The translations under genes and the position numbers were made by a program. A stretch of DNA of 62,871 nucleotides, filler included, from Welwitschia mirabilis (Eukaryota), in the NCBI GenBank assembly GCA_051453625.1. It is 8 parts of one record of this genome, joined end to end, with 100 filler letters (N's around TTAATTAATTAA, not from the genome) between each part and the next. Parts side by side here need not be neighbours in the genome. Positions count along the whole stretch, not along the records: positions 8,057 to 25,452 come from JBOZIK010000001.1; 7 more parts are not named here. The stretch is one strand, 5' to 3'. Shown here piece after piece: positions 1 to 43,900 of the stretch. The notes below the pieces were generated by a model, which worked only from the letters and a program-made list of their open reading frames with translations, was not told the origin of the DNA and made no database searches. Numbering within the stretch: the first letter of the stretch is position 1; each line of letters starts with the position of its first letter.

Positions 1-1110
1 GTAAATGTTGGCTTGATTGGTGCCCCATACGTCTGTGCCAAATAACTGAGGAGTCTCTCTGCTCGATCTTCAAAGCCGTATGTAACTTCATCGATCGAAA
101 ACAGTAGACCCCCCTTGAAGTTCATCCATTCTAATCAGCGTCATTAAAGTGTGATCCTGTATCACACAAAGTCGATTAGTAAAAAGTATTTAACAATTAT
201 TCTTGGAAATCAACTGGTGTATGAAAACTAAATTGCAAGTCAAATCAGGGACATAAAGAACATTAACTAATATAATGTTTTCATTTAACACAGCCCGACC
301 CTTCTTGGTAACTGTTGTTTTCATGCCATTCGGTAACATAACCGGCATTGGCATAGCATTTGTTACATCTCATAACAAGTCAATATCACTTGTCATATGA
401 TTGGATGCACCACTATCGAGAATCCACGTAAACGCATTAAATGTAATACCAGAGAGATGTTCTGAAGTATCTATAATGCTCAAAAGTTTCTTAATTTAAT
501 TTGCAAAAACCCCAAGTGTGTTTGGGCCGCTGTTTGGAGCATCTCCTACTATTGTCGATGTGCTTGACCCACCAGTTGCATGATAGGTTGCGGCCCTGCC
601 TTGCTGGCCATGATTCATATTTACTTTGGAAGCTCTGACACTTTAGGTATACTGTCTACCTTATTGTCCGTCTCATAAGGTGTCGTTCTTCCACCACTCT
701 AGGTAGTCAATAAGCTCAAAACACTCCAAAGGGTTCATGCCATGAATGGTTATAATGAGGATAACGATGCCCCTCATGTCCCCTCTGCATGCCATAGGAC
801 TACTACCTAGAAGCTCCAATGGATATGCCTTGCTGCTGATGGGTTTCCATTTCTCGTGGCCTCTCTGTTTGGGTGGCGAAAGCCATCACCTCTACCTTCT
901 CTTCTTGGCCTCATATGTTCAATCGTGTCAAGGAGGTATGACAACTATGCCACTCATAATCATAATGGCCCATGAGTAACCCGCTTTGATACCATGTTAA
1001 AAGAATAAGAGAGGAAAAAACTAAATAGAAATTTAATACTCTAAAGGAAGTTCCGTGAAGTGAGTCATGCAAAGGTAGTTCAATTCTATTAGATGTAAGT
1101 ATAGAGCCTT
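1..1110 (-). mobile_element. Ty1/Copia LTR retrotransposon, 5' part (LTR end, PBS, truncated gag, protease), decayed
   Basis: The minus strand at 391-426 reads WILDSGASNHMT (Copia protease motif). A post-zinc-knuckle CFELIDYLEWW-like motif lies at ~690-725. PBS at 983-994; the LTR starts TGTTAA at 995 and runs into the gap at 1111. Confidence 0.9.
983..994 (-). promoter_or_regulatory. Primer-binding site (tRNA-iMet type)
   Basis: GCTTTGATACCA is the reverse complement of TGGTATCAAAGC and directly abuts the LTR terminus at 995. Confidence 0.85.
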
Positions 1111-1440
1111 NNNNNNNNNNNNNNNNNNNNNNNNNNNNNNNNNNNNNNNNNNNNNNNNNNNNNNNNNNNNNNNNNNNNNNNNNNNNNNNNNNNNNNNNNN
1201 NNNNNNNNNNATAAATTCCTAATTTAAAGGTCTAAATCCTATAAAATTAATTGATTCATTACAATTATATACTAATATAAGAATCATCTTAGATGTAGGC
1301 TAGCAAAGAATAAAAATATAGTTAATGTTATGTTGTATTCTTGTCTTATTCCCTTTCTTATTTATAATCCTCTTCTTTTGATTATCATGAAATCATTACT
1401 AATCTTTGCATTCCGTAACATAACATCACATGTTTTATAA

Positions 1441-1486
1441 CACACACACACAAACACCCACACACACACACACCCACACACCCACA

Positions 1487-1533
<47 letters not shown>
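1441..1533. repeat. Imperfect (CA)n microsatellite
   Basis: Directly visible CA run with a few interruptions. Confidence 0.97.
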
Positions 1534-1537
<4 letters not shown>

Positions 1538-3545
1538 AAGGTCATCATTTTAAATAAAAATAATAATTGTCATATGTATTGAAACTTCAAACTTTTAATA
1601 TCATGAAGTTTCATTCGTAAAACCAAAAAAACTATTATTTTTCTTGATTTTCATAGTAGATTTTTAATATGATAAGATCATATTAGATCACCCTTAGAAT
1701 CATATATCATACATATTAATGTAAAAAGTCTTACAAAGTTAACTTGAAAAAAATTCCTTAAGAATTTGCCAATAGTATGAGTGCATGTGTATCAAATTAA
1801 TGGAACTAAGTATATGCTATAAATTGGAGATATTTTACTACAACTATTTCTTATGATAAAACTTATATTGTCACCACATGAAATACATTATAATAGAAAA
1901 TATAAAGAATTAAAAAAATAATTTTATTGATTGATGAAAAACATACCTACATGTATGTTACTAAATTGCATTATAACACTAGTATAGAGAGAAAAACACA
2001 TATTTAAGAAAGTGTTTAGATAGGAAAGTTATCTATAGAGCTATTTAAAATCACTAATTACTTTCAAATACAATGACATAAGTCATAAAAGTGGTAGGAT
2101 AAAAAGATTCACATGATTAGACATAAGTGAACTATTGAAGTCAAAACATCAAATTGATGCTTTTTACTTATAAAAAATATGACATTAACATCAACTTGAG
2201 TAATTTATGCAAATTAAAGGTTAATTATGATTAATTAAATTGCAAATAATGGATTTAATTAATAAAATTATTTGAAACAATCATATACCCTTAAACCAAC
2301 TGAAAACGAGTTGCACTTTTGTAAAATTTGGCTTACAGTTCATAAAAATGCATAATAGAAACTCAAGTACGTATAAAATTATAATATAACCACTTAATCA
2401 CATTTTATTACATATTATAAGTTTAATAAACATAAAATTATAAACAAAATTTTATTTAAAGTATTTGTTTAGAAGACATGTACTTAGTCCACAACTAAAA
2501 GAAAGTAGAGAATATAAGAGAGAAAATACAAAGACATATTTTGGTATCATTGAGATTTTCTAAACATCATATTCTAGTCTACCATGTGCGATTTCAGTGA
2601 TTTCTAACTCAAAAATGCAATGCCCAATCAAACAAAATTGAAACATGTAAAGTGAATCATGTAAACATGATGTTTCAAGGGTTTTTTGGTTAAAATATCA
2701 AGCATGTAATATATTCAGAAATTGGTAAACATATGAACAAAGATGATAAGACATTTCAAAAGTTCATAAAAAGCATAAAAACACTCTAGGTTGAGCAAAA
2801 AAAGGTATTAAAAAATGAACTTTAAGAAGAGGAGAAGGAATCAAAGAATTTATGACAAACTTATTGAAAGAGAGATTTCACGTGTTTGAATGTAACTAAT
2901 ATTCCCACTACCAACATAAACATCAATAATTTTTTGAAAGAATAAGAATCTTTTTTGTAAGATACAAAAGAACATAATTAACCTCTTTCCAGTGTTTCAT
3001 GTAAATAAGCATCTTTCACCTCCCTTTTATTATACCTAAATGCTTGAATATGATTATGTATGTAACATTGAAACAAGTAAAAAAGGAGAAAGCTAAAGAA
3101 TGTCCTCACAGTGTCATTGAGATCTTCATCAAAAGAACAGAAAACGAAGTCAAATAGGAAAAATAAAATGCATAATAGAAACGTAGAAAAGCCAAGCTGT
3201 AACATGATCATTGATTGGCTGATGATTTCTTAATTTGATACAAGCCTTGACGCTGGAGGACTACGTCTCACTTATGAGTCACAAAAAATAATGATCCAGG
3301 CTAAACACCCTTTAATCTCTTATTAAATAAGGTGTACAGGTGAAATGCATGCCATATGTTTGTCATGTACATATGGAGGTAAATCATGCTTCCAATGCAT
3401 GCCTCATGCCTCATGCTAATGCATCATAACACCATGCATTAGATAGAAATTCAAATTAAAAATACATGCCCAGAGAGAATTGCATAAGGAATGAAGATGT
3501 GATAGAAGCTAACGGTCAGGTAAGCAATAATGTGAAGCAATAATG

Positions 3546-8169: not shown

Positions 8170-9744
8170 AGCTTTAATTTAACTTTTAACTTTAAAAATG
8201 AAAGCTTTTATTTGGACTCATAAATATCTAAGTATCATAACTTCTCATATTGTCCAATACAAGATCTACCTAGAAGACAATTCAAAACCCATTAAAAAAC
8301 CTTAATGAAAACTTAAGCTATCCCTTAAGCAAGTAGTCCAAGATGAAATAATTAAACTTATGCATGTTAAGATCATTTATCCTATTTCTAATAGTGAATG
8401 GTTAGTCCTCTTACATTTGTACCTAATAAGGGAGAAAATGATGAGTATGCATTAATTCTAGGAAACTTAATGATATCATTAAAAAGAATTATTATCCTTT
8501 ACATTTTTTAAATAAAGTTCTTGATAGAATCTAATGTTATGGTTCTTCTTGTTTTCTTGATGGGTATAGTAAATACAACCAAGATTTCATAGTCAATGAA
8601 GAATATGCCAAGACTACTTTTAGCTCTTTTTTAGCACCTTTGCTTTTAAAAGAGTGTTCTTTGGCTTATGTAATGCTTTGAAAATCTCTCAAAGAGCCAT
8701 GATGGGTATTTTATCTGATATGATAAAATATTTTATAGAGATCTTTATGAATGATGTTTTATATTTGGTGATTTCTTTGAACAAATCTTATAAAGATTAG
8801 AAAAAGTCCCTAACCATTGCATGGAAAGTAGCCTTCATCTTTGTTGGGAAAATATTCATTTTCTTATAAGGAATGGAATCATACTTAGATATCATATTTT
8901 TAACTAGGAAATTAGAATGAATTCTTTAAAAAATAATATCATCAAAAATCTTCCTCCTCCAATTAATGTCAAATAAGTAAGATCTTTTCTTAGTCATGCT
9001 AACTTCTATAAAAGATTAATTATAGATTATGTCAAAATTTATAAGCCCATTCATTCACATCTTGAAAAAGATGTAAAATTTGATTATACCAATACTTGTT
9101 AAGTATCCTTTTAAAAACATAAGGATAAGATCACTTCCAAAATAATTATGACATGACCTTATTAGAATGAATATTTGAACTTATGTGTAATGCTTACAAT
9201 GTTATCACTTAAAATAAAAACATGATAAGGGATATAACATTATTTCCTATATTAGTAAAATTCTTTTAGGATCCCAATCTAATTATGCCACCATTAAAAA
9301 ATAAATGCTAGCCATTATCTTTTGCTTAGATAAACTTTGACATTACCTTTCTAGAGTTTATACCAATGTCTACACTAATCATGCTTCCATTACATATTTT
9401 ATGATAAAGAAATATTCAAGTGCTATACTTATAATATGGACACTCTTAATGTAAGAATTCCACCTAACCATCATAAACAAAGAAGAAAAACATAATTGTG
9501 TTGCTAAGCATCTTTCATGTATGCCTTAAGAAAGGAGTATCTTATACTTTTCTCTTAACCTTTCTATTAAGGATTCCTTTCAAGATAAACAGTTATTTCA
9601 CATTTATTTCATATTGGTATGCAAATATTATCAATTATGTTGTTACTTTTAAAAATCCCCAACATTGGACTTCTAATTGAAGAAAAACCTTTCTTCATAT
9701 AATATGGGATTATGAATGGATCAAGTTTGTTTTTAATAGAGAAC
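8170..9744 (+). pseudogene. pol: Gypsy RT-RNase H remnant (element A)
   Basis: Motifs IIYPISNSEW, FLDGYSKYNQ, FGLCNA, IEIFMND, LMCNA, NYATIKK*MLA and YTNHA, with many stops and frameshifts. Confidence 0.9.
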
Positions 9745-10730
9745 TGATTGGAACTAATTTTGATGTAAATTTTACTTATTAATGAAATACTTTTGTTTTT
9801 ATAATTATACATTTGAAATGGTATTAGAAATTTTTCTTTAGTAATTAAGTTAACATACTATCTAGTCAACAAGTTAATTAATTATTATGTTAGTAGGTTA
9901 GATATATATATATATATACACACACATATATGTATGCATATATATTACATCATTGTGTTATAGGTACAAGATGTCCTTTAGCATGATGATAAAATAGAAG
10001 ACTAAGGTGGCAAAAATGCAATAACAACCATAAACCTATTCTAAGGAGAAAAGAAAGAAAATGGCAAAATAGAAAGGGGTATAAGGAGAAGATCACCATA
10101 AAAAGTGGAGACCTTTTGGCAAAAGGCTCTAGTAATAGAACTCAATAAGAAGGTCAAAAAGAAAAGCTCTAGCCATTCTACAAAGGGCATAGCAACATCC
10201 TCACATTTTAGTATTACTTGTAAAGGAAAACACAAACTCATTAATACCTTTTTGTGTAACATTTTAGTGTTTCAATATAAAGCTAAAAATCTAATATTTT
10301 GAGTATTATTTTATGCATCTTTAATTAATTACAAAAGTAATATTATCTTCTACTTGCTCCTATTTGTGTAGCTAAATATAAATTAGGATAATTAGCAATA
10401 CTTAGAGAATAAGTCTTATTTAGTATTCAGCAAAAGTTCTATTATGTTTGTTTAATTCTCTTTATTTTTCCTAATGTAATATATGTGTATAGTAAAATTG
10501 TCAATTATCAACCTAACTAGTTCAAGTAACTTCATCATGAGCCTATCATGATGATGCATTTTGAACTAAATGTTTGAAGTACTAATAATTTCAACTAGTT
10601 TTTTAGTAAATATTTGAATTTTTATTCAATGGTTTGAGCTTATTTTAGGTTAAAAACATCATTATTTTGTTTCTTTTTTAGCATAATTATTAATATTTTT
10701 TGCATTATTTCATAACTTAAGCTTCCATCA
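9745..10730 (+). repeat. 5' LTR of element B
   Basis: TGATTGG...CCATCA; colinear direct repeat of 17129-18078. Confidence 0.92.
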
Positions 10731-11199
10731 TTTTGATGCTAGAAGAAATACCATCCTACAGTGAACTAGTAGAGAAGAAAAAAACTATAATTCAATGAGA
10801 TAGCCAAGGAAAATGATGAGATTAAAAAGGTAAGTAGGTTAAAGACCCTGACAAATATAACTTGAATGAGAAAACTGGAAGTAGAGGTAAAATAAAATAG
10901 AAGAGTAAGATCTTATAATGGATGAAACTAATCTTGAAAAGACTATGAAAGAGTAAATCTTTTCCAAATTAATGAATGAATTTCAATAGTAATTACTTAT
11001 ACTCCTTAAACCATCTCTTGATTAAGGAAAATCATTTCAAATAGCTCAAATAAATAAACCTAAACATAAATTTGTAGTAGGATGATATTAAGAAGATGAT
11101 GGAGATTTAAGACCTTTAAATTATAATACCCATTAGCTAAAAGACTTAAGTTCCATTAATCCTATAGCCTTAGAACATCTAAATAAAGTGAGAAATATA

Positions 11200-11620
11200 A
11201 ATATAACATCAATATTCACTTTTAAGGATAACAAATCAGAAGAACCATGCTACATTTAAGTCTATTTGATTTCTTTTATAAAGAAAATTATTTTGATTTA
11301 GAATCTGCTTATGTAACATATTTTCCTTTTCTTTAAAAGGGAATGCTTGGTTGTGTATTACAGAAATCATAATCATACTTTAGTTTATGAAAAGTTCTTA
11401 AGAATGCTTTCTTAGCTAAATTTTAACCCACAAGGATAGTTAAAGATTTAAGAAAATAAATTTTGATTATTAAACAAAACGATAATGAAGAATTTGATGA
11501 ATTCATGAATAGGTATAATAAATTATTAGCTAAATGTCCTAACCATAGAATTGTAGCTAAAGAATCAGTTAGAGATTTACTTAAAGGATTACATAGAAAG
11601 CAACAAAATAAATAATGTTC
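11200..11620 (+). pseudogene. gag: Retrotransposon gag remnant (element B)
   Basis: FLAKF*P...KQNDNEEFDEFMNRYNKLLAKCPNHRI matches the Athila-type gag core (Q..E....WER+K.LL.KCP.HG). Confidence 0.8.
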
Positions 11621-12639
11621 AAGAAGTAGAAGAAGTTATTAGTTTTATGACACAAATAAAAAATGGAAATAAGAAATTGAAAAGAAGAAAAGAGTAAATG
11701 AAGTATTTACCGTAGAAGCAAAGGCTAGTGTATATAGTTTAAAACATGTCAATCTTATAAAATAAATAGCTAAAAAAGTGATTGATAGTATGATAGAAAA
11801 TTTTAATTTATTAGTTATATAACACTTTAAATAGAAAGAAGGACCTAAATGCAAACATTATGAAGAAGATAATCATAAAGAAATAGGATATCCCTAGATG
11901 CAATAATTTGTTTATTAGTTGGATATTAATATGTTAACTTTAAATATAGGAAAAAAAACCTTAAATAAGGGGAAAAAACCATATTCATACCAAAGTAGAA
12001 AATGAAAAGGTAAGTTAGAAAGGCATTTAAAAAGGAATATAAATTTAAAAAGACAAAAACAATATGATTAGTATAGGAATTGGAGAAATAGAAACTCAAA
12101 AAACATAAGAGAAAGATCATAAGTACAGAAGAAAGAAAGGAAAATTCCTTCTTAACCTCAATCAAATACAAGAAAAGAAACAAGTAAAGTAATGACTACT
12201 AGATCTGGGAAACAAATGGTGGCACATAAACCACAAGAAAAGGAGATAAATTTAAATACTTCTCCAAATGATGAAAATAAAAATATCAAAAGAAAGTAGT
12301 AGATGATTCATCAATGGATCCTCTACCTTTTTCCATAAGAAGTAAACAAATAGAACAACCAAAAATTAAAAAACACAAAATATTTAACAAAAGTTTTAAA
12401 AGATATAATAATATCGTTACCTCTAATAAAATTACTAAAAAATGTACCTATGTACTAAAAAGCAAATAAATATCATTTTCTTAAAAAAAGGAATAACAAG
12501 GAAAGTAATAAGGAAAAGCATATTGAGACAATTAGGAAAGGTTAATTTTCTTCGACTTCCACATAAGTTTTGTAAAATAAATAACATGAAAAATATAGCA
12601 ATCCATTAACACCTATGATAGACATAAAATTAATGGAAA

Positions 12640-13855
12640 ACTCAAAGTAGAAGTACTTGTGGATCTAGGAGAAAGCATTAATTTGATGGCCTATAAAACT
12701 TATTAGGAATTAGAAAAGTCAAAATTGATACCTTCCTAATACCTAGTAGATGGATTAGCAGTAATATAAAAGGAGTTCTAAAGGATGTACCCATCAAACT
12801 CTAGGGATTTATCTACCTAATTGATTTTTTAGTAATGAAAACTCATGGAGATACCCATGAAATAATTTTAAAAACATGTTGAATGGCTATTGTAGATGCC
12901 ATAATTTATTTGAGTAGAGGGGTAATGAAAATTAGTTTAAGATATCTTAAGAAGAAGATCAAATTGTCTGGTGTAATGGTAGAAGAGATGGCACAAAATA
13001 AAAAAGTTAATGTAATTCTAAAAGGTTAGTGTAATGTTAAATAAAGAAAATGAAGAAAAGTATGAAAAGTAAAATTTGACATCTCAAGAAGTCAAAAAGC
13101 CCCTAATTAAGGAAGGATCAAACCATCTCAAACTAGCTCTAAATAGACCCTTTGATTATAAATAGTTATTTAGATTATTCTTAAAAAAATAAAATAATGT
13201 TAACTAGAAGAAAATGATCTTTTTCTTAGAATAATACAGATATTAAAGAGATAGAACTGAGAATATATTAACACAAAATTTATTTGGATACCTCTATCAA
13301 ACCAAACAAGTAGCCAAAAAGGGGATGTAACTCATATATATAAGAAATAATTAAATAAGAAATTTCTAAACTTTTAGATGTTGGATTCATATATCCTATA
13401 TCTTATTTAAAATAAGTAAGTTTTATCACAGTGGTACTAAAGAAAAGAAATAAATAGAGAGTATGTATAAATTTTTAAATGTTTAATACTACAACTTATA
13501 AAGATCATTTTCTTCTTTCATTTATAGATCAATTTTAGAAAGAGTAGCTAGATATTTATACTATAGTTTTTTAGATAGATATAATGGATATAATTAGATC
13601 CTAATAGCTTTAGAGGATTAAGCCAAGAAAAAGTTCGCTTATCATCAGGGTACTTATTCCTATAAATTATTACTATTTGAATTATGTAATGCCCCTGCTA
13701 CTTTTTAAAGGTCAGTAAATAGCATTTTTCAGGATATGATAGGAAGATCTCTTAAATTATTTATGGATGATTTCTTTACTTTTGGAAATGATTTTGATAA
13801 GTCACTTGACAAATTGAAAACTATTTTAGAGAGATGTGAAGAAAAACATATTCTG
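12640..13855 (+). pseudogene. pol: Protease and RT remnant (element B), ends before RNase H
   Basis: VLVDLGESINLM (~12655), LLDVGFIYPIS, KDHFLLSFIDQ, FLDRYNGYN*I, LFELCNAPATF and LFMDDF. Homology stops at ~13855. Confidence 0.9.
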
Positions 13856-14499
13856 GGTAACCCATCCTCATTATTAATGACCTCCATTGCAAGTTAACAA
13901 ATATCTTCCTTTCATATTACCTAAATCATGTTAGCCTTCATAATGTTTGTTTTACATTAATTAATTTTCTTATCATTCTTCTTATCACCATGTCATTCCA
14001 TTTTCCAACATTAGCACCCACATGAAATAATTCCATTTCCAACTATTTTCCTAGTAAAAATTTTGCATTTACTCCTTGAACATGTGAATTTAATGCAATA
14101 TTAAGTATGAGTGTTTTCCTATTTTATGTGGAGAACAAGTAAGTAATTCCACTTTTACTTCTACATTTTTACTCTATTATGCTTTCATGCTTTTTTGTGC
14201 TTTCTTTTGTTACATTCTTTTGAATTATAGTGGAACATCTTCATGAAAAATATCAAGACATCTAATGAATTATTTTTAGCATTCAAAAGTATGCCAAAAT
14301 TAACATGAGGATTATAATTTAAAAAATATAATTTTACCGATATTTTTGCAAATTTAGTGAAAGCACATCTCGAAGTTTGTGAAAACAACTCTATAAAAAT
14401 ACATTTTATATTATTTTTAAAAAATAATTACTTAGTGAATTTTTTTTAAACATTATTACTTAACAAGCATTTCTTTAAAACATCTCTTTTAATAAACAA

Positions 14500-15200
14500 C
14501 TTCATCTAATTCCAACGATTGCATCGAATTTGATAGAATGGAGAATTATTTCTTTATTGAATTTTATAAACGTGCTTTTTAGGCCCTACTTAGCAGAGTT
14601 TAGATATATAATTGTTAAGTTGAGGTGGTATGAATGGATAACTATGAATGATGGATTCATCTTAGAATTTGTTTTTGAATCTTATAAGAATTTAAGAATA
14701 AATAACACAAATGATGTAGTGAAAACAATATTTAAAAATAAAATAATATTGATTACTCAAGAAAATATCAAAATAATATTACACTTACATTCTGAAGGAA
14801 AATATATTGAGGATATAAGTAGAAAAGAAGATACAAATTTAAGCATAATTCTTCAAAGAAGGATAACAATACAAGGAAGATTTCTAATGGATAAATATTC
14901 AGAAACTTAATTATTTATTCTTTTAATAAATGTGGTCAATAATTTGCTATCAATCCTTTATAAAGATAAAGGTATTATAGTACTTGGGCTATATATGCTA
15001 GTAACTATAAAGGATAAGATAAATTATACAAATGTAAACATTATAGAAGGAATCTTTTTGGGTTTGGCAAGACATATTTCAAAATTAAATAAAATTAGAA
15101 TAAGAACTTCTAGAATAGTAGGGATAGAATTTCCCTCTTTGATAGCCTAGATACTAAGCAACAATTTAATTTCATTTCAACTAAATAACTCCTATGTAGG
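14500..15200 (+). pseudogene. env-like / putative plant transposon protein accessory ORF (element B)
   Basis: ORFs 14530-14910 and 14932-15150 are one frame broken by a stop. EFVFESYKNL (cf. LV.EFY.N) and IEFPSLIA*IL (cf. L.FP.LIT) are present, in the usual position 3' of pol. Confidence 0.65.
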
Positions 15201-16189
15201 TTTAGCCATTTAGAGTTTGTTTGGAGTCATAGAGTTAAATCTTCTAAGAAACACAAGACATAGAGCTACTCAACTAGACTTGGGAGAATCCTCTTCTACT
15301 ACCTAGAGTCTACCTTCATTGATTCCTTCCTTAAGCATGGCCAAAGACCCAACTCGATTCTCTTTTAAATAACTCTTACCCTTTCATCTAGTTCATTTTA
15401 GTAAATTTTCGAAAGTACTAGAGGAAGAAATGATTAATAGTCTTTGTAGTGCTTTGTATTTAGTTAAAGAAAAAATTTAAACCTATCTTGATAGAAAAGA
15501 AGAATTTTTATAATTAAAAAAGTAACTTAATAATTTAAAAATTGAAAATAAATTTTTGAAGCAGAAATTAGCTTAAAAAAGAGAGAATAGTAAAAGATTA
15601 CAATATGAAATTAGTAAAAGGGAGGAAAATATTTATCTTTCGAAAGCTTGCAAGGATGTAAGTAGGAAATTACAGAGAGCTTATGAATGCATAACTGAAT
15701 TAGAGATCACTGATGTAGACAAGGATAACTTAGAAAAATTTCCAAGGTAAAGATCAATTAGTATCCTTAATATAGAATTTAGCTTTAAGCAATAAATATG
15801 ATGCTAAATACATAGAGCATCAATAAAAGTTCATTGCATTCATGCATAATGAAGGACCTCTACCCTTGAATAGTGAATATTTAGAGAAACTTTACATAGT
15901 TTTATAGGAAGAATATTTATGTAGAGGTCCAATAATATAGACACAAATGGTTTAAATCCCAAAATTCATTAAGATACAATTAATCCATTTTGGGAACAAA
16001 TAAGAGATCCATGAATTATATGATAGATGAAAATAAAGCTCTTAAGAGTTACATAGGAGAAGCAAGCTATTCTAGTTAACCTCTTCAAGATCCAGCAAGT
16101 AAAATATGTCTTGAGAAATAAAAGTGGAGATCAAAAGAGTCGCAAGCTCAATTTAAAACATTCCTTCAACTTCTTCAACTATGAATAAT

Positions 16190-16860
16190 GAGATTGAAAA
16201 CAAAATAAAGATATGTATTATAGATACTTTGAAGGAATCTCATGCAAAGTTGAAGAAGGATATTAAAATAATATGCCCAGAATCTACCTATCTTGCTATT
16301 TAAATTTTAGAAAAAGAAAGTATGAAATTACTACATAAGCTATGCCTAATGAAGATGAAGTTGGATAAGAGGTTTGGGTTTGGACATAAAGAATTAATAG
16401 TTCCATGAATCCTTGACTACTATCCTTAGAAACTGTATAATTTTATTAATAAATTTAAAGAAACTTTAGAAATTATCATTTAAAAAACTTTTGTAAAGTG
16501 GTCAAAGAAAAGCAAAATTTTCGATAATTGTAAAAGAGAAGTTAAATCTTTAAGGACTGAAATTTTATAAAAAAGGAGCTAAATTTAAAAATTTTCAATA
16601 AGCTACAAAATTTTATAGAATATTAGAAGAATAAAAATTAGATATAAAAGTTTTTGTAGTTTTCTCTCAGGATTTTTAATAGTTATGTTCCTTTAGAGAT
16701 AGAATTTTGAAAAATATGACTATGTTAAGAGGCACCTTTATAGGCGTCTTTTTAAAATTAGAAAATAAGGATTCATTATATATGTACATAATTCTGATAG
16801 AACAAACTTTAAAAGTAATACTACAAGTTAAAACAACTCTAGAGCTAGAACATATGCCTT
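16190..16860 (+). pseudogene. Unassigned decayed accessory ORF ('ORF-X') of element B
   Basis: Aligns at protein level in two colinear blocks with minus-strand 43254-43767 (see findings). Confidence 0.75.
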
Positions 16861-17128
16861 AAAATTTTAAATTAAAGATTCCTCCAACTTCTAAAAGAAA
16901 GAGATAAAAACCAAAGTAGCCAATGGCTCCTTAAGAGGAAAATTTTAACTCCATTAGAATAGGAAAAACAAGTAACCCAATTAGCTAATAAATTGGAAAA
17001 ATTATATTTCAATGAAGAGCACACTTTTATTTTCAAAAGGAGAAAGGAAAAATAATAAGCCTCTCTTTCTCTTTCTTTTTTATGTATTTATTAAGGAAGA
17101 ACTAATAATACCTTGAGCTCAGGGGAAC

Positions 17129-18078
17129 TAATAAGAACTAATTTGGATGTATATTTTACTTGTTAATGAAATGCTTTTATTTTTATAATTATACATTTCA
17201 AATGATATTAGACATTTTTCTTTAGTAATTAAGTTAATGTACTAGCTAGTTAATAGATTAGTTAGTTAGTATGTTAGTAGGTGAGTATATATATTATATC
17301 ATTATGTTGCAGGTATAATATGTTATTTGGCATGAGGATGAAAGAGAAGACCGAGGTGGTAAAAATGCAATAACAACCTTAATCTTAAACCTATTCCTAC
17401 CAAGCATAGAAAGGAAATGATAAAACATAAATGTGTAGAAGAAGGATATCACCATGAAAAGTGTAGATCTTTTGGCAAAAAACTCTAGTAATAGAACTTA
17501 GTAATAAGTCCAAAAAGAGAATCTTCAGCCATTCTACAAAGGGCACAATATCATATCTCACATTCTAGTGTTAAATACAAAGGAAAACACAAAATCATTG
17601 GTACATTTTTATATAATGTTTTAGTATTTTAATATAAAGATGAAAAGTTAACATTTTAAGTATCATTGTATGCATCTTTTATTACTTGAAAATGTAATAT
17701 TATCTGCTACTTTCTCTTATTTGTATAGCTAAATATGAATTAGAAAAATTATCAATACTTTCAAATAAATATTATTTAACATTCATTACAATTTCTATCA
17801 TGTTTTTCTATTCTTTTTATTTTCCAGTAATGTAATATATGTATATATAAAACTTATTAATTACCAACCTTAGTAATTTAAGTAACTTCATCATGGGCTT
17901 ATTGTGATGATGCATTTTAAACTAAATGGTTGAAGTACTAATAATCTTAACTAGTTCTTCAGTAAACCTTTGATTTTTTTAATTTAATCATTTAAGATTA
18001 TTAGCATCATTGTTTCCTATAAGTTTTAGAATAGTTCTTATATTTTTTGCATTTATTTCATAACATAAGCTTCCATCA
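17129..18078 (+). repeat. 3' LTR of element B
   Basis: TAATAAG (decayed TG start)...CCATCA, followed by TSD AGAAC. Confidence 0.92.
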
Positions 18079-18083
18079 AGAAC

Positions 18084-18501
18084 CCAAATGAAAATAACAT
18101 GATATTCTTTCTCTTTATCATGGTGCTGTGTCTAGAGGTTAATCTAGTGGCCAAAAGACCACCATCAAAATTCTTCATGCTAGGTTTTATTGGCCTCATC
18201 CTTTTAATGTTTTTTTTAACTTTTCTAGAAGATGTAATACATGTTAACATTTTGAAAGTAAAAGCAAATCTCATTAAGTACCCCTTCAATCTATTTTGGA
18301 ATGTGAAGATTTTGATCACTGGAGTATATCCTTCATTAGAGAACTTAAACCATATTCTTGTAATAAACATTATATCTTGGTAGTAATTGATTATCACTAA
18401 ATGATTTAAAGCAATTCCTATTCATTCTAATAATGTAAAAACTATGTGCACTTTTCTTAAATCAAATATCTTTCATAGGTTTGGATTTTTAAGGGTCTTG
18501 A
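18084..18501 (+). pseudogene. Gypsy integrase N-terminal remnant (element A), truncated
   Basis: SGQKTTIKILHARFYWP (cf. G.KTA.K+LQ.GFYWP), CEDFDHWSI (cf. E+FD.WG+DF) and FHRFG. It stops abruptly at TGTAAT, 18502. Confidence 0.85.
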
Positions 18502-22549: not shown

Positions 22550-23924
22550 GGGATCATAAGTCAATGAAATAAAAATTAGAGAGGAAATAAAATCAAACCA
22601 AAAGTTAACCCTGCTAAAAGATATTACACAATGTCCTACTACATGTAAACTAGATTAAATATTTCCAAGAGCATCCTTTAGCAATATGATATGATAGATA
22701 TGAAAACTCTGGTGAAGGGTTAATTAGTCATGATCTATCTTTACTTGTAGATCACGAAGGGTCAATTAGTCATGATCTATCTTTACTTGTAGATCCTTAC
22801 TCTTTTGGTAATGGTTGCATACCTCTTATCATGAAGAACAATCTTTCTCAACATCCCACTTGATTTTCATTACTTCAAGGTAAAAACCTTGAGTGCCTTT
22901 GAGAATATTAATCATTAGATGATATTTTAACCAAAGTACTATGGTCTCTATAGCTAAATAAGGAATGACTTATAATCCAAACATTAATTGAATATTGATT
23001 TCTTTACTATATTATTTATTGATAAAATATGTTATTCTAACATTGTATCATATATTTTTACATCAGGCAGACTTATGATTTTCTTTGAAAAATTCTTCTA
23101 AGTTATAATTTAGGGTAAATTATTTAATCTTCTTCTTATTTAATGTTATCCCTTTGCAATTTTTTTATATTCTTACTTGCAAATCAGTCTTCTTAAATTC
23201 ATTCACTTTACTTTGTTGTCAACAATGGTGAGAACCTTATCATTTTCTAGTCTTTCAATTTAGAATTCTATAGTCTTGATGTAAAATAATCTTATCCTTA
23301 ATCATTTTCTTGTTTTCAATAGCTACTCATATTAGTATTATGTCATAGAAGTTTTAACCATGTTATTATAACATTTTTATCCCTATAAACTTGAAATTTC
23401 CTTTTAGGAAATCCTCTTTCTATTATATCTTAGATTCATTATCTCTTAACTTTGAACTCTTTATTTTACCCATTGCTAAGGATGTCGTACTCATGGTCAT
23501 GTGGATAACACTTATGGATGATAATTGTTTGCTAATCCTTATATTAGTAAAACTTATATAATCAAATATTTTACCTTTTATATTCACAAAATGGTGATTA
23601 TTAAGTATCATCCACCATGTCATTCCCTAAATAACAAGAAGAACGACATCATTCTAATATTTCTTGATATCATGCTTCTCAATCCTCTTTAATGTTTTTA
23701 ATACCTTAATGCATATCATACTTTACCAAAAATTAAAATTAGATTTTCATCACCTTTTCTATCTAAAAAATATCCTATTCAGGCTCAGTAAAAAAGTTCA
23801 TAGGACATGTTCACTTATCTTTTAAATCATATGAACCTACCTTATCCTAAAAAAGATGCATAATCTCTTTAAGATCCTGTCATCTACTTTAACATCTAGA
23901 CAATAAGGTATATGACATTCATCT
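22550..23924 (-). mobile_element. Decayed L1-type LINE ORF2 (RT region), left of the Sirevirus insertion
   Basis: Minus-strand remnants in canonical order: KKY*NDVV (cf. F+.K.W.++), NMVK.(F)YDI (cf. DM.KAYD), LEMIRFS (cf. L.MGF), ISHSLFSYRD at 22941-22973 (cf. ISHLLFADD) and SKDRS*LIN (cf. S.AGR.TLI). Confidence 0.6.
22714..22795. repeat. 42-bp tandem duplication
   Basis: GAAGGGTYAATTAGTCATGATCTATCTTTACTTGTAGATC at 22714 and 22756. Confidence 0.9.
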
Positions 23925-25229
23925 TAATAGTTAAGGATTGACCTTAGAGGAGGTGAATAGGTCTTTTAAGTTCTGTCTCCTTGTTCTTCATGACCTGCAA
24001 AAACAATAATATAGAAAAAAATACTAAAATAAGGTATTTAATGATGGATAGATACCACCCTTTAGCTTTGTAGATTCCTTGTCCTAGCTGGCATATATTT
24101 ACTTACAAGAATGGTTTTTAGGCTTATCAAATAACCTTTCATAACCAATGAGGATTTTATGGCTTATTCTCAATCAAGAACAAATGATAGAGAGAAGGAT
24201 GCATTAATGCACAGATGTGATTTCTAAGTAACATTAATCTTCTTTTTAAGAGAATGCAATGATGTGAGCACAACAGAAATCTAAACCTTTTTGGAATGTT
24301 TAGATGTGCTAGTAAAAAGTATATTAGTCCTTGTTCAATCTTGGATTTGACAAAAATAGTATCAGTGTCCTCTAGTAATTAGAGGAAAGCTTTTATACTT
24401 AAGATGTAACATATGACCATTTTCTTAAAAGGAAATGAATCATTGCGGTTTTCTAAGGAACTGTTGTACTTTTGCTAATGAACCGTTGTGTTCATAATGA
24501 TTATATTTTTTCATCACATGATCAAACTTTCATTATCTTTGGTCAACCGAAACTACAGTCACCCTTATTCTAACGTTCGGTCATCCTTGCTTGTCACAGA
24601 TTTCTCAGTATAGGATATGGTGCAAATTTGGTTGCCCTTGTGAAAATACTCAGTTGCCCTTAATTAGCTTGTTCTTATCATTTATACTTGGTTAATCTTA
24701 TGAGAGGATATTCTTGCTAAAATGCAGTCATCCAATCTCATTTTATGCAGTGGACCTGATGTCATCCAGTTCATGTTCTAATGATTATCATGTAGTTTCC
24801 CATATCGTAACTGTCGGTCGCTTGTACTACTATCACATAGATTCTTACTGTGTGTAATGCAGTTGCCCATATGAATATCTTCAGTCGCCTATCTTTCTAT
24901 CTAGTTGGATTTCACTACATGTATTGTAGTCACCCATATGAAATAGTCTAGTCACCCATACTGCTATCATATTTGATAAGGCTAAGTGAATTGTGATCAC
25001 TTGTGTGAGTATGATGGTTGTCCATATATTAATCAGTCTTCTTTATGTTATCTTATTTTATTTGCCTAGTAATTCATATGCAGTCACCCACTCCTAAAGT
25101 AGTATTATAGTTCTGGATCATTCGGTCACCTGATCTGATAAATCGATCACCTGGTGCTGGAAGTTACCTGCATAAAATACTAACTTATAAAAAATTATTA
25201 AATTAATCAATGACAATGGATTCTCAACA
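23925..25229 (-). repeat. 3' LTR of the Sirevirus-like element
   Basis: Direct repeat of 32173-33020 and 36780-37156. Ends TCAACA next to pyrimidine tracts (PPT complements), and has many degenerate CGGTCACC-like motifs. Confidence 0.92.
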
Positions 25230-25552
25230 AACTTTTCCTTTGTTATTGATTGAGGAAAAACAATAATTTAACATCTGGGTTCTCCCCCTAACTCATTTAA
25301 CTTTGAAAGTAATTATATTTAAATGAGTTTTAAATATAAAAAATCAAAAGAAAAATCAAAAGTAATTTGCATAAGAATAAGCTTCTTTGTATTACTCAAA
25401 AAGTGTCATTACATGTGAAAGTTATATTTTAACCCATTTGTAATACAAAGAANNNNNNNNNNNNNNNNNNNNNNNNNNNNNNNNNNNNNNNNNNNNTTAA
25501 TTAATTAANNNNNNNNNNNNNNNNNNNNNNNNNNNNNNNNNNNNNNNNNNNN

Positions 25553-26253
25553 TTATGAGGAAAGGATAAGGCAGGGCACGCCGTTTCTATGACTGAAGCT
25601 AGTTGACCATATATTTGAGCATGATTGCAGGGGCATCTAAGTCTCTTCACTAGTCTAGTACATACATGAGATAGACTTGATAATTTAAAAGCTCATCTCT
25701 ACATCACTAGGAGGAAGTTATAGGACATGATTAGATACAAAAGACAAAATTTTGGAAGAAGTTGAAAAGCTTTAAGAGTCTTTTTCCATGTAATGTATGT
25801 GTCACACACATGGTGATTGGCTGCATTCTTCTCTTCAAAAGACTCAACCATGGGCTAGTATTCTCACTAATTCCTTCTTAGAAGAACAGTGAGGGATGTG
25901 ATAAGATCTGTAGTAATGCACATTTCTTGGCTAAAAATAGAGGTAATGAATATAAAGTAAGTTGCATCATACCTGGAATTCGAATAGAATAACCTAGTAA
26001 CCAAAGGGTGGAACATGTGAGAAACATGAAGGGAACCCTAATTTACTTCTTCTAATAGAGTCTGGACTTCCCTGAGGCTTAGAAATTGCATGGGTTTATA
26101 AGTTCTCTCTAATGCAATGGGGATTGTCTTAAAATGCTTATCATAGTACCTCAGATACTCCATGCTCATTTTGGAAAACACATAACTCGGTGGTTTCACT
26201 GCAGCTTTCTTTCTTCTCTTTCTAGATCCCTCTCCTAGATGAGAAGAAGCCAT
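25553..26253 (-). pseudogene. Sirevirus env-like ORF remnant
   Basis: ORF MASSHLGEGSRKRRK... lies between pol and the 3' LTR. Downstream FHPLVTRLFYSN (~25980-26015) resembles the YP.LV..FY.N motif. Confidence 0.7.
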
Positions 26254-26879
26254 TTAAATTCTAGATCTGAGAAAAAGCATGTCAAAAAAGTGGAAGAGAA
26301 TTCCCCAGTATCTCAGAAAATGATAGAAAGTGATGCCAAAAGAATAAGATAAGAGAAAGAGGGGGTGGAGGTGTGGTAGATTTAAAAAATTCGCTATGTA
26401 TCACCTTAAATGTGAGTGACCGATCGGAAGGTCAGTCGATCGGTGAAAAATTTTAAAAAACTAATTATAAGGCAGCAGTCAATCCAAGGAATTTAACGCT
26501 CAACCTTCTAAGAAGAAATTTTTATTAAAAAAATCCAAATAAAACTCAGTTAACCTAGAAAAATAGAGGTCAACCTATTGTGACTAGAAAAAATCATCAA
26601 AGTAAGGTTGACTGAAGTGAATTTTTCAGTCAACCCAATTTTTACAGCATTTTATAGGAAAAACAGGAACTCAACTAGTTGACCCAACTTAACATGTGAT
26701 CGATCTAGTGAGTGGAAAATCTAATAGTTAAAAAGTCTAAGAGAAAAGGGGTCTCCCTAATGGGAAAAGAGGTCGACCAGGGTTCAAATATATATAAAAA
26801 TTAAAGATTTAAACCACCTCACTAAAACTTATTATTCAGATGAGGTTATGTGAGGCAAGTCCTTTTCAGCCTTAATAGC

Positions 26880-29800
26880 TAAAAAATAGCATAGGTTTGA
26901 AAATCAATCTGAAGATAATGGTTTTGTAAAAATATCGGTTAATTGACCTTCTATGTAAACATATTCTAAATATATTATGTTATTTTCTATTAATTCATAA
27001 ATAAATTGGTACCTGATATCAGTGTGTTTGGTGCAAGTGTGTTGAACTAGATTGTGAGCTATTTAAATGGCACTTGAGTTGTCACACAGAATTGGCACTT
27101 CCGTAATATTCATTCCATAGTCCTTCAAGGTCTCTTTCATCCATAAGGTCTAAGTGAAATAAGCTCCAACCACTATGTACTCAACTTCAATGATAGAAAG
27201 AGATATAGAGCATTATTTCTTGATATATCAAGCTATGAGACAATTTCTAAAGAAAAAACATTCATCACTTGTGCTCTTGAGATCATCTTTACATTCCACC
27301 CAATCCACATCACTATAACCTATTAAGCCTAAAGTAGTATCATTTGAAAACTATAAACCAAAATCTAGAGTACCTTTCACATAGTGAAGTATTCTCTTTG
27401 CAACTATAAGATGTGATTCCTTAGGTTTACTTTGATACCTAGCACACAGACTAATACTAAAAGCTCTATCCAAATGACNNNNNNNNNNNNNNNNNNNNNN
27501 NNNNNNNNNNNNNNNNNNNNNNNNNNNNNNNACATCCTTACCATATTCATCCAAAGAAAGTTCAACATTTGTGTCCATGGGAGAGTTCATACAGTTTTCA
27601 TTTTATAATTAAACTTTTTAATCAAATCTAAGGAGTATTTCTTTTGATTAATAAAGATTTCCTATTTGCATTGCTAAATTTGTAAACCTAAAAACATATT
27701 TACAGGTCCAACCATACTCATTTCAAATTCAAAACTCATGATTTTAGTAAAATCATTTGACAAACTTTCATTTGTTGATCTAAAAATAATATCATCAACA
27801 TAGAGTGGTACTATAATTAAGTCANNNNNNNNNNNNNNNNNNNNNNNNNNNNNNNNNNNNNNNNNNNNNNNNNNNNNNNNNNNNNNNNNNNNNNNNNNNN
27901 NNNNNNNNNNNNNNNNNNNNNNNNNNNNNNNNNNNNNNNNNNNNNNNNNNNNNNNNNNNNNNNNNNNNNNNNNNNNNNNNNNNNNNNNNNNNNNNNNNNN
28001 NNNNNNNNNNNNNNNNNNNNNNNNNNNNNNNNNNNNNNNNNNNNNNNNNNNNNNNNNNNNNNNNNNNNNNNNNNNNNNNNNNNNNNNNNNNNNNNNNNNN
28101 NNNNNNNNNNNNNNNNNNNNNNNNNNNNNNNNNNNNNNNNNNNNNNNNNNNNNNNNNNNNNNNNNNNNNNNNNNNNNNNNNNNNNNNNNNNNNNNNNNNN
28201 NNNNNNNNNNNNNNNNNNNNNNNNNNNNNNNNNNNNNNNNNNNNNNNNNNNNNNNNNNNNNNNNNNNNNNNNNNNNNNNNNNNNNNNNNNNNNNNNNNNN
28301 NNNNNNNNNNNNNNNNNNNNNNNNNNNNNNNNNNNNNNNNNNNNNNNNNNNNNNNNNNNNNNNNNNNNNNNNNNNNNNNNNNNNNNNNNNNNNNNNNNNN
28401 NNNNNNNNNNNNNNNNNNNNNNNNNNNNNNNNNNNNNNNNNNNNNNNNNNNNNNNNNNNNNNNNNNNNNNNNNNNNNNNNNNNNNNNNNNNNNNNNNNNN
28501 NNNNNNNNNNNNNNNNNNNNNNNNNNNNNNNNNNNNNNNNNNNNNNNNNNNNNNNNNNNNNNNNNNNNNNNNNNNNNNNNNNNNNNNNNNNNNNNNNNNN
28601 NNNNNNNNNNNNNNNNNNNNNNNNNNNNNNNNNNNNNNNNNNNNNNNNNNNNNNNNNNNNNNNNNNNNNNNNNNNNNNNNNNNNNNNNNNNNNNNNNNNN
28701 NNNNNNNNNNNNNNNNNNNNTTAACATAAACTTCTTCTTCTATATTTCCATTTAGAAAAGCACTTTTTACATCCATTTGAAAGACTTTCATTTTCTTAAA
28801 ACAGGCAAAAGCTAGAAACATCCTGATTGATTCCAATCTAGTAACTGGAGCAAATATGTCTCCATAATATACTCCTTCTATTTGGAAATATCCTTGGGCC
28901 ACTACTCTAGTTTTCTTTGTAATTTCATTTTTCTCATTACCTCTGTTTCTTAAAATCCACTTTGTACCTATGACATTTTTCTTTCTTGGTTATGAAACAA
29001 GTGTCCAGACCTTATTTCTAGTGAATTGTTTAAGTTCTTCTTACATTACATTGATCCAAATTGGATCAGATTCAACCTCTTTAAAAGATTTAGGTTCTAT
29101 TTGATACAAAAGAAAGACATGATCACTACAGTTCTTAAGGGAATTTCTGGTAATAATACCTTGTTAAACATTTCCAATAATATATTCCAAAGGATAATCT
29201 TTGAGTTCTTTAATTTTTGGAGTTGTTATATCTTTTGGGATTTCATCCATTTAATTAATAGAGCATGAGAGAAAAGTATCTTTATTAAGTTTAATAGATT
29301 TTGAAGAATTTAAGATATCATTTATTTTTACATTAATTAATTCTTCTATATGAAAAGTTCTTTTGTTAAAGACTCTATAGGCTCTCTTAGATTGAGAGTA
29401 TCCTAAAAAGATTCCTTTATCTGATTTAGCATAAAATTTAGCTAATTTTTTTTTATCTCTTAGAATGAAGCATTTACTCCCAAAAGTTTTAAAATACGAT
29501 ATATTTGACTTCTTGCCTTTCCAAAGTTCATAAGGAGTTTTGGACATTCTCGGTCTCAAGTAAAATCTATTATATATATGACATGTCATGTTCACAGCTT
29601 CAACCCAAAATTGTTTTGGGATGTTTTTGTCATTTAGCATTACTCTAGCCATATCTAGCAGGGTCCAATTTTTCCTTTTAGCTATTCCATTTTGTTGAGA
29701 GGTTTTAGGGGTTAAAAATTCATGGCCAATTTCATTTGAGTTGCAATAAATTTCAAATCTTTCATTTTCGAACTCTTTGCCATGATCACTTCATATTTTA

Positions 29801-32107
29801 TTTATTACATATTCCTTCTCATTTGAAGCTTTTTCCAAATTTTAACAAAGTTTTCATAGGCATTAGATTTTGCATAAAGAAAAGCTACCCATGAAAATCT
29901 AGAGAAATTGTCAACCATAACTAGAAAATATCTTTTTCTATATAGACTTGCAGTTTGGATAAGCCCAACTAGATCCATAGAAATTAAGTTTAAGGGTTTA
30001 CTAGTTGTGATATTGCTAATCCTTTTATGAAAAGATCTAGTTTGTTTTCCCTTTTGACAAGTGTCATAAAGCCCTTTGTGAGAAAAAGAGATTTTAGAAG
30101 GACCTTTAACAATCTCATCATGACATAATTTCTTTAAAGAGTCAAAACTAATATGACCTAGATGCTGATGCCAGATAATATCATCTTGAGTATGAGATGA
30201 TAGACATATAGAGTTATTCTATTGATTTACACAATACACATTTTCATGTCTATTTGCTATAAGAAGAGGTTTATTGGTTTTTCCGTGTTTTACAATACAT
30301 GAGGTTTTATTGAAAAAGACTTTATGACCCTTATCACAAATCTAACTAATGCTTAATAAATTATGCTTCAAACTATTAATAAATAAAACATTATGAATAT
30401 TTGATAAATTACCTTCACCGATGCTTCCAATTCCTTCAATTTATACTCTTCCATTATCTTTGAAAGTGACTTCTCCTCCATTGTATTCCTTGAAGCTGAT
30501 GAAGTTTAATTTGTCACCTATCATATGTCTCAAGTAACTACTATCTAGATACCAATGTGAATGATTAGTTGCTTTTAAAGCCATTTGAATCAATAGGCTC
30601 TTAGTTATGGACTTAGGAATCCACCTCAAACATTTGTTTCTATTTGTAATATGATGAGATTTTTTGGTAAATATAAACTTAGATTCTAAAAGGGAGTGAG
30701 GAAATCAACGTTTACTAAAGACACAATCAATCTTAAAGTGACCCTTTTTATTGTAATAATGGTAGGTGATATTAGCTAAAGAATTCTTGGAATCTCCCTT
30801 TGACATGGGTTTGAAATGAGAAAAGTGATAAGAATTGAAGGAGCTAGGGGATGATTTTCTAGAGGCTTGATCCTTTATTCTATAGGAATTTGATGCAAGG
30901 CTATTTTTCAAGTCATTAAATTCCTTTTCCCTAATCTCAAGCTTATCTATAAGGAGCTTATTTTCTTTTCTATGTTGGTTTAATCTGTGAGCTAGATTTT
31001 GGAATTCCAAATATAATTCCAATTCAATATCACTAAGCATATCTTCACTAATAACTGAATCAATGTGAGAATTAGAACATACCTTTTCATCGATGATCAC
31101 TATGAGAGAGATACCACCACATTCTAAATCTGAGTTTTGCTTACTTTCACTTTAATCATTATCCCATATTACAAACAAGACTTCTTTCCATTTCTTTTGT
31201 CATCCTTTTTGTTATTTGGATTGACATATGAAGTATGACCAAAACCTTTGTAGGAATAGCATTGAATCTTATGGCGTCTTTCATCTTTTCTTCTTAGTAA
31301 TCTCCTAGACTGACATCCACCTTGCCTTCTTTGCATGAAGCATTTGAACCTTCTGGCTAAGAGAGCCACTTTATCATCACTTTCTAGTTCTAACTCAGAT
31401 CCATCCTTGATTTTGAGAGCTTCATATGTGAAATATAGTGCCACACTTTTCTTCTTTTTCTTTTTAAATTTCAGCTCAAAAGTGTGAAGGTTCCCTTGAA
31501 GTTCATCTAGTTTTATGATGTTTAGATCCTTGCTTTCTTCTATAGTAGTCACTTTTAATTTGAACCTTTTTAGTAGAGATATCAAGGATTTGCGAACCAC
31601 TCTTAATTATTCAATTAATTCACCTAATTCATGCATATAATTTATAATATCTATTAGTTTTGCAAAGAAATCATCTATACCTTTATCGTTTTCCATCTTT
31701 AGGTCCTCAAACTGGGTGATTAGCATTTGAAGCTTATCCTACTTTACTAGATTTGTTCCTTCATGAATGGTTTCTAGGATATTCCATGCTTCTTTAGTAG
31801 TGGTATAGTTCACCACTCTTTTAAAATCTTTTGGACCTATGGTATACAAGATAGCATTTAGGCGTTTGAAGTTATAGGTTGTGGTTTGTTTCTCATCTAG
31901 TATCCATTTGTCCCTACTTTTTGGAATTGCTAATTTAGTAATAGGATCTTACATAGTAGAATAATAATACCCAATAATAATAAACTCCTAGATTTCTAAG
32001 TCAATAAATTAAACAAAGAATCTTATCTTTGCTTTCCAATAATCATAATTCATTCCATCAAAGAAGGTAGGTCTTGTGACAGAGTTCCTTTCCGTGGGTT
32101 GACTCAT
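26880..32107 (-). pseudogene. gag-pol: Copia gag-pol (gag, two zinc knuckles, PR, IN, RT, RNase H), disrupted
   Basis: Start MSQPTERNSVTRPTFFDGMNYDYWKAK; KVTTIEESKDL; WYLDSSYLRHMIG; MARVML...FWVEAVN...TPYELWKG; FAPVTRLESIRMFLAFA...QMDVKSAFLNG; ARYQSKPKESHL; QLTDIFTKPL. Confidence 0.95.
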
Positions 32108-32159
32108 TCTCTAGGGATGAGTGGAGTAGAGATCTGTTAGGATCTATTGCTCAACCTTA

Positions 32160-32170
32160 CTCTAATACCA
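32160..32170 (-). promoter_or_regulatory. PBS (tRNA-iMet type) of the Sirevirus-like element
   Basis: CTCTAATACCA is the reverse complement of TGGTATTAGAG and lies 2 nt from the LTR edge at 32173. Confidence 0.85.
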
Positions 32171-43099: not shown

Positions 43100-43900
43100 G
43101 TTGGATCATACAAATTTATATTTTTTAATTTAATTGAGCTACCTTTGATGGTTTCCCTTTTGATTGTTTACCCTTTTTAGTACTTGAAATTTTCTTTAGT
43201 TTCCTCGGCTAAGTAGGAGAGGGTTTTTTAGATTCCTCCAATCTAAAACAACTTTCTATTAAGATAGTTTAAATGCCTTCTTTTCCTTCTATTTTAGAGA
43301 AAATATCTATAAAATTTCCTCTAAGCATTCTCATACAATCCAAAAGCTAATTTCTTTGATTTTTAAAGATTTTAAATCCTACTTAGCAACTATGAAAAGA
43401 TAAATGTCTTTCTTGATACCTTCATAGACTCAGAGGAGTTTGATCATTGCCTTCTAATGTTGTCCTTTAACTACTTCACTCTTAATATTATTTACCTCCT
43501 TCAAGGCTTGATTAGATACCCTACTAATTTTTTCTATCCTTTCTCAATCTTCTATATTATTTCATTTATAACTTTTTTATAATCACTAAAGTAATCATTT
43601 AGTTTTTAGGGATAAAAATGCATACTCCTTGGTACCCTTAATTTCTCATTTTCAAATCCCATTCTCTTCCTTAGTTAGACTTCTAAAAGTTTATTTTCAT
43701 AAAGCAGTCTACTTTTATCATTCTTAAGATTTTCAATTAAATCTAGCTAGCTAGGAGGAATTAATATTTCTTTGAGTGTATCTGAAATTTAATACACAAA
43801 AATCTTTATATCCACTGGAGGTATTTGTTGTAAAGAATATTAAAGAATTCTTTCTAAAATTGGAGATAATTCATTTTTCAAAAACCTTTATTAGACTGTA
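43100..43900 (-). pseudogene. ORF-X homologue (unit C)
   Basis: LRKRMGFENEKLRVPRSMHFYP*KL... and MRMLRGNFIDIFSKIEGK align with element B 16268-16486 and 16707-16802. Confidence 0.75.

Follow-up and report, generated by a model that had tools for sequence, protein, structure and literature searches.

Two stretches of the window (the 62,871 nt of Welwitschia mirabilis DNA that were analysed as a whole), one at 16.2-16.8 kb on the plus strand and the other at 43.2-43.8 kb on the minus strand, still translate into similar proteins although both are riddled with stop codons. The question is whether they are the remains of a gene that was once under selection and, if so, of what kind of gene. In a preliminary description, they were considered to be two conserved blocks of a small unassigned gene (ORF-X) shared by two divergent retroelements; the two copies are referred to here as A (plus strand) and B (minus strand). 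We conclude, with a probability of about 0.6, that ORF-X is the C-terminal quarter of an extra ORF of approximately 880 codons, which is of the eORF-3'F/aORF-3S type and belongs to an old plant Ty3/gypsy-type element.

The translations of 16268-16486(+) and 43549-43767(-) were reproduced letter for letter. A recount of the gapless alignment of these 73 codons (block 1; 16268-16486(+) against 43767-43549(-)) gave the 24 identities and two aligned stops that had been counted before. The aligned stops are TAG/TAA at 16427/43608 and TAA/TAG at 16481/43554; the TGA at 16406 in A lies opposite an Arg codon in B. The figures for block 2, located at 16707-16802(+) in A and at 43281-43343(-) in B, were also confirmed: 12 of 21 codons are identical, and the motif ILIE follows in both copies. 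Conservation peaks in this block, which contains the best 30-codon window of the whole ORF (14/30 identities, BLOSUM sum 66). The spacing of the two blocks had been given as 346 nt in A and 331 nt in B; the difference of 15 nt is correct but the absolute values are not, the start-to-start distances being 439 nt (A) and 424 nt (B).

The window is AT-rich (27% GC, with 3448 N), and such a composition inflates the content of K, N, I, L and F in any translation. A similarity arising by chance or as a compositional artefact of low-complexity DNA was therefore considered. When the interior of element A was compared in six frames with the whole window, a single partner locus was detected, with three colinear protein HSPs (A/B coordinates 14761-15615/45206-44373, 15467-16486/44478-43549 and 16380-16916/43655-43152), which scored 43.1, 51.2 and 37.7 bits, respectively. 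The control against shuffled sequence, which the preliminary description had proposed, placed this match far beyond chance: the best HSPs from each of 200 triplet shuffles of B had a mean of 24.3 bits (sd 2.0) and a maximum of 31.2 bits, so that all three observed HSPs exceeded every shuffle. The frameshift-aware alignment with strict penalties, which is described below, scored 333 as opposed to 66-99 in eight shuffles. Moreover, the signal is confined to one frame on one diagonal. Along the same gapless diagonal, the frame originally proposed gave BLOSUM62 sums of 109 for block 1 and 61 for block 2, whereas the two shifted frames reached 26 and -4 in block 1, and 4 and 10 in block 2, and also contained more stops. 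These controls already refute the chance reading, and its remaining probability is negligible.

Several observations indicate the level at which the two copies were conserved. Identity at the first, second and third codon positions was 48, 68 and 36% in block 1 and 46, 55 and 38% over 735 aligned codons, the latter values being partly inflated because the codons were aligned on amino acids. At an amino-acid identity of approximately 31% between A and B, third codon positions are saturated. The sense strand is favoured (the best antisense HSP reached 33.9 bits versus 51.2 bits for the best sense HSP), and plain blastn of A against B found at most ~57% identity over ~420 nt. The conservation is thus of the protein-level and not of the DNA-level type. 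Taken together, the frame-specific score, the identity by codon position and the antisense and blastn results mean that the original suggestion of a formerly selected protein stands.

In contrast, the idea of ORF-X as a separate small gene was not borne out. The similarity continues for ~2 kb further upstream, which had been missed previously, and ORF-X corresponds to the C-terminal ~220 codons of a colinear region of ~880 codons. The strict frameshift-aware alignment joins A 14260-16922(+) with B 45683-43149(-) over 824 aligned codons, 253 of which are identical (30.7%), and the conservation runs along the whole ORF with 5-14 identities per 30 codons. An alignment with lenient penalties was discarded as over-fitted (real score 688 versus ~400 in shuffles), and the strict penalties were used instead. 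Copy A contains 45 in-frame stops (26 TAA, 11 TAG and 8 TGA) and at least two to three frame switches, near 15733 (on the lenient path only), 16183 and 16619. Its best-preserved single-frame stretch, 14383-15798(+), comprises 472 codons with 14 TAA/TAG and no TGA. Copy B is more decayed, with at least 59 in-frame stops in the aligned columns and at least nine frame switches. In both copies the ORF ends with a basic tail rich in Lys, Arg, Ser and Pro (16880-16922(+) in A), which reads PPTSKRKR.KPK.P in A and SSTKKGKQSKGK-P in B.

This extent also bears on the claim that ORF-X is neither gag nor pol nor the env-like ORF. The claim holds in that Pfam gave no gag or pol family and none of the known extra-ORF families; the separateness from the env-like ORF is doubtful, and the ~880-codon region takes in the frame at 14383-15798, which is possibly the very ORF that had been called env-like.

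Block 2 lies in the +1 frame relative to block 1, and the same net +1 step occurs in both copies (between 16486 and 16707 in A and between 43549 and 43343 in B). The strict alignment attributes the step to separate frame switches, at 16619 in A and at 43526 and 43356 in B. A programmed frameshift, a short intron or some other ancestral feature at this site is nevertheless conceivable.

Copy A lies in a complete Ty3/gypsy-type insertion at 9745-18078, which has TG..CA LTRs and is flanked by a perfect 5-bp TSD, AGAAC (read directly at 9740-9744 and identical to 18079-18083). The 5' LTR (9745-10730, plus strand) starts with TG, ends with CA and was paired by blastn with 17125-18078; the 3' LTR is located at 17129-18078(+), directly downstream of the purine-rich tract CAGGGGAAC (17120-17128(+)), which by its reading is the putative end of the PPT. 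The two LTRs are 77% identical according to blastn and 82% identical over aligned positions, with 11 gap events. A gag remnant was found at 11397-11594(+) (Pfam Retrotrans_gag PF03732, E=3.4e-6, 27.6 bits; residues 553-618 of the frame starting at 9741) and a partial reverse transcriptase at 13520-13846(+) (Pfam RVT_1, profile positions 56-180 of 205, E=1.1e-9, 38.8 bits). No RNase H or integrase of A was matched in any of the three sense frames at E<=0.01. On the sense strand, the ORF starts a few hundred bases 3' of the RT fragment and stops 207 nt short of the 3' LTR.

Element A is itself nested inside the pol gene of a second, canonical gypsy element. The RT of this outer element is located at 8183-8812 and its RT_RNaseH domain at ~9200-9460 (E=5.9e-16, 59 bits), and its Integrase_H2C2 zinc finger follows at ~18095-18253 (E=0.006, 17 bits), right after the TSD of A.

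The ORF thus occupies the place, directly after RT, where the RNase H and integrase of a canonical 8-kb gypsy element would be found, and the region might belong to pol itself, either as an RNase H-integrase part that has diverged strongly or decayed, or as an extension at the C-terminal end. We consider this very unlikely. Searches with the RT_RNaseH, RNase_H, Integrase_H2C2 and rve HMMs produced no match in the ORF of A, and neither RNase H nor the integrase zinc finger nor rve was matched by the frames of A at E<=0.01 or by the ORF pieces at E<=10. The outer element is equally old and still yields both its RT_RNaseH and its Integrase_H2C2 at the scores given above, and the RT and gag of A itself are detectable. 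The integrase region of the outer element showed no local similarity to either copy of the ORF, the best HSP (27.7 bits, E=0.024) not being colinear.

Around copy B (43149-45683, minus strand), no Pfam family was found on either strand, no LTR pair was detected, and there was no local similarity to gag or RT of A or to the RNase H and integrase of the outer element. A motif resembling the PPT and LTR start lies at the same distance 3' of the ORF as in A; its likeness to that of A is not significant, since 87 of 500 shuffles scored as high. The description of the two loci as two divergent retroelements is thus documented for A, with its LTRs, TSD, gag and RT on the plus strand, and not for B on the minus strand, around which neither gag nor pol nor an LTR was detected. 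We infer that B, too, belongs to a retroelement.

The ORF had previously been impossible to place in a known family, and the outcome of our searches was the same. Pfam gave no family for the ORF, either with ORF pieces at E<=10 (three of the eight pieces in one search were off-frame) or with all three sense frames of both loci at E<=0.01, and PDB sequence searches gave no match at E<=1. An exhaustive phmmer search with 14383-15798 found no protein at E<=0.001 among 1.84 billion representatives. A word-indexed protein search returned nothing for the N-terminal part of the ORF and nothing for an ORF-X profile against longer proteins, and none of the 597 pattern matches in a scan of metagenome contigs with the ORF-X profile was confirmed. 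The RT of A, which served as a de facto positive control, had no match in the word-indexed search either, and the blank results are therefore weak evidence. A resemblance of the N-terminal part of the ORF to the 'putative plant transposon protein' family was considered; the searches done here lent this no support.

AlphaFold2 models were of too low confidence for use as folds, with a mean pLDDT of 42.3 for ORF-X (with B as the alignment) and 38.2 for the N-terminal part alone. The only part that reached block-mean pLDDT values of 57-68 was a predicted long, coiled-coil-like helix at 15529-15699(+) (helices 383-396 and 400-439). This segment gave weak matches to Pfam coiled-coil families (E=0.03-0.06), and B has a comparable K/E/L-rich stretch aligned with it. 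After smoothing, the hydropathy profiles of A and B are correlated (r=0.62). No transmembrane-grade window common to both copies was found, i.e. no 19-residue Kyte-Doolittle window above 1.6 in both, which is a soft test given the decay, and neither an N-terminal nor a C-terminal hydrophobic anchor is conserved in both.

These features are relevant to the possibility that the ORF is an env-like gene of the Athila, Calypso or Bagy-2 type, coding for a membrane protein made from a spliced subgenomic RNA. Its position and orientation, in sense after pol and ahead of the 3' LTR, are those of the env-like ORFs of Athila, Calypso, Bagy-2 and SIRE, which also have a helical segment resembling a coiled coil, and both copies share one moderately hydrophobic segment (KD19 ~1.5 at A 15187/B 44785, the best shared window). 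The common net +1 step between the blocks could be taken as a hint of splicing, but the separate switches in A and B explain it. The ORF differs from the env-like ORFs in the lack of conserved transmembrane segments and of a terminal anchor, and it has no match to Pfam ATHILA ORF-1. We therefore regard an envelope gene as quite unlikely. The protein looks soluble and mostly helical; its coiled-coil-like segment lies centrally, and its tail is basic (Lys/Arg-rich). From this look, the tail and the lack of a shared transmembrane segment, a cytoplasmic or nuclear accessory role may be proposed rather than an envelope function, for example in particle assembly, in the binding of nucleic acids or in nuclear import. 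This function is read from weak features, and both copies are decayed, their hydrophobic and Lys/Asn/Ile content being inflated by C-to-T decay.

Extra ORFs of this kind have been surveyed systematically. Extra ORFs of at least 250 codons were reported in 3372 plant Ty3/gypsy elements and sorted into 314 groups with little mutual similarity; likeness to CDD domains was found for only 21.4% of the eORF proteins, the main domain families being PMD, Transposase_28 and ATHILA ORF-1 (Neumann et al. 2019, PMC6317226). A review covers aORFs of sense orientation located between pol and the 3' LTR and tells those present in most copies of an element from one-copy transductions (Vicient and Casacuberta 2020, PMC7264820). 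To call the ORF an undescribed accessory gene, as had been done, was therefore an overstatement: unassigned extra ORFs in this position and orientation form a documented, very heterogeneous class (PMC6317226).

The ORF agrees with the eORF-3'F/aORF-3S class in several respects. It lies within a bona fide LTR element, which is shown for A with its LTR pair, TSD, gag and RT and not for B. It is on the plus strand like gag-pol, after the (truncated) RT and 207 nt before the 3' LTR. With 824 aligned codons outside the polyprotein it is well above 250 codons, this being the length of the inferred ancestral frame, which is no longer open. Finally, it is without a recognisable domain, like most of the 314 gypsy eORF groups (PMC6317226). 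The difference lies in the host element: from RT to the ORF, A lacks both RNase H and integrase, so that the order 'pol - eORF - LTR' is incomplete and A may be deleted or recombinant. PMD (PF10536, Ogre), Transposase_28 (PF04195, Retand) and ATHILA ORF-1 (PF03078) belong to the accessory ORFs found in plant gypsy elements other than chromoviruses (PMC6317226), and the ORF is of the same accessory kind; it differs in giving no match to any of the three, either with ORF pieces at E<=10 (with the three off-frame pieces mentioned above) or with both loci at E<=0.01. The comparison with the published eORF groups was made by description only, and the supplements of that study (PMC6317226) might already include the group of this ORF. 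The assignment of A is at the Ty3/gypsy-type level, whether Athila, Tat or other.

A variant of this assignment is that the ORF represents an uncatalogued accessory family conserved across deeply diverged lineages, and that A kept gag and the ORF, lost RNase H-integrase and spread as a non-autonomous 'parasite of a parasite' by means of its own ORF. We rate this version as rather unlikely.

According to the eORF reading, an ORF of ~880 codons, placed in sense after what is left of pol and ahead of the 3' LTR of A, was once under protein-level selection, and the very divergent second copy, B, with ~31% amino-acid identity, shows that the gene persisted through a long divergence. Such persistence means that this group, at least, was upheld by selection and is no random open frame, which bears on whether eORFs function at all. 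Should less decayed copies exist, the large set of functionally unexplained extra ORFs of plant LTR retrotransposons would gain a further conserved group.

Sequencing runs were compared with 9700-18100 at a likeness of at least 90%; they comprised DNA runs of two organism labels and two RNA-seq runs. The DNA contigs represent a highly repeated family. Their summed depth, which is not copy number, was ~490-3400 over gag/RT, up to ~4900 over the LTRs and ~20-720 over the ORF, and contigs exactly matching the locus had a depth of ~3.5-4. The two organism labels provided 25 and 22 variant contigs at 16226 and 26 and 28 at 16668; dozens of sequence-distinct copies of the ORF region are thus present at >=90% likeness under both labels. 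The ORF-bearing structure is multi-copy, and it may be a minority form: in view of the lower summed depth over the ORF, many family members may be without it.

The summed depth falls approximately ten-fold at ~13.9 kb (13900-14300), at the very point where the RT fragment gives way to the extra ORF. This drop suggests a deletion or recombination breakpoint which separates the copy type of A from the bulk of the family.

The main rival to the eORF reading is gene capture, i.e. that the region is the ORF of a host gene or of another mobile element which was captured, by transduction or recombination, into the lineage of A and replaced its RNase H-integrase. B would then be a decayed copy of the donor, and the protein-level constraint would have been exerted in the donor. 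We regard this as possible, though on the unlikely side. It would account for the missing RNase H and integrase of A and for the short distance, a few hundred bases at most, between the point of truncation of RT and the start of the ORF, and the depth falls at this junction and stays lower over the ORF. B, with no gag, pol or LTR on either strand and no significant PPT/LTR-start likeness to A, would also suit a donor locus, and transduction-like captures are on record (PMC7264820). However, such captures typically occur in one or few copies (PMC7264820), while the ORF exists in dozens of distinct copies under two organism labels, and the many distinct contigs of the ORF region argue against a one-off capture. 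The end of the ORF 207 nt before the 3' LTR of A is the standard place of native extra ORFs. Moreover, the absence of a homologue among 1.84 billion representative proteins and in Pfam would be unusual for a conserved host gene, even if the decay weakens this point. The native extra ORF remains the preferred reading.

Under the two organism labels, the sequence of 9700-18100 was found near letter-for-letter, with word shares of up to 0.92 and 0.51. Either the nested insertion is therefore older than their split, or the labels stand for very close relatives.

Support from RNA-seq had also been suggested as a check of the ORF, and essentially none was obtained: among ~12.5 and ~11 million records, respectively, the two runs contained 4 and 10 partly fitting reads of 90-95% likeness. 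No joints, as a spliced RNA would give, were present among these 4 and 10 reads, which were matched to the locus of a dead copy.

Both copies are dead relics without present-day function. In the window the CpG o/e is 0.22 and that of CAG/CTG (CWG) is ~0.6. This depletion of CpG and CHG is the footprint of plant-type CG/CHG methylation followed by deamination; there was no RIP signal, the RIP index not being elevated. Eleven alignment columns have a stop in both copies versus 2.8 expected (p=3.5e-5, with a scoring that slightly favours stop-stop columns); the two shared stops of block 1 do not depend on the alignment. Gln is enriched opposite stops (7/76, p=0.004). The proposal that the stops are deaminated Gln codons fits these CpG and CWG values and the enrichment of shared stops and of Gln.

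A ciliate-type code, in which TAA and TAG would be read as Gln, was rejected in view of the frame breaks, the eight in-frame TGA, the LTR identity of 77-82% and the CG/CHG depletion.

The LTR pair of A has 10 gap events per kb that are not multiples of three, and several frameshifts are therefore to be expected in an ORF of 2.7 kb. Inactivation of both copies proceeded mainly by methylation-driven C-to-T decay and small indels.

Other repeats of the window were noted in passing. A Ty1/copia element occupies 23924-32988 on the minus strand; its LTRs (23924-24764 and 32172-32988) are 81.6% identical and differ by 101 transitions and 28 transversions. Retrotran_gag_2 was matched in this element at ~31.1-32.2 kb, and Pol_BBD, gag_pre-integrs and rve at ~29.6-30.7 kb. 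In the region 48785-59432, repeats from one or two families are clustered and occur in both orientations; no protein domain was assigned to them. Examples are the pairs 55021-55653/58231-57567 (81%) and 53212-53712/59432-58933, and 50941-51854 and 52060-52958 form an adjacent tandem pair (72%).
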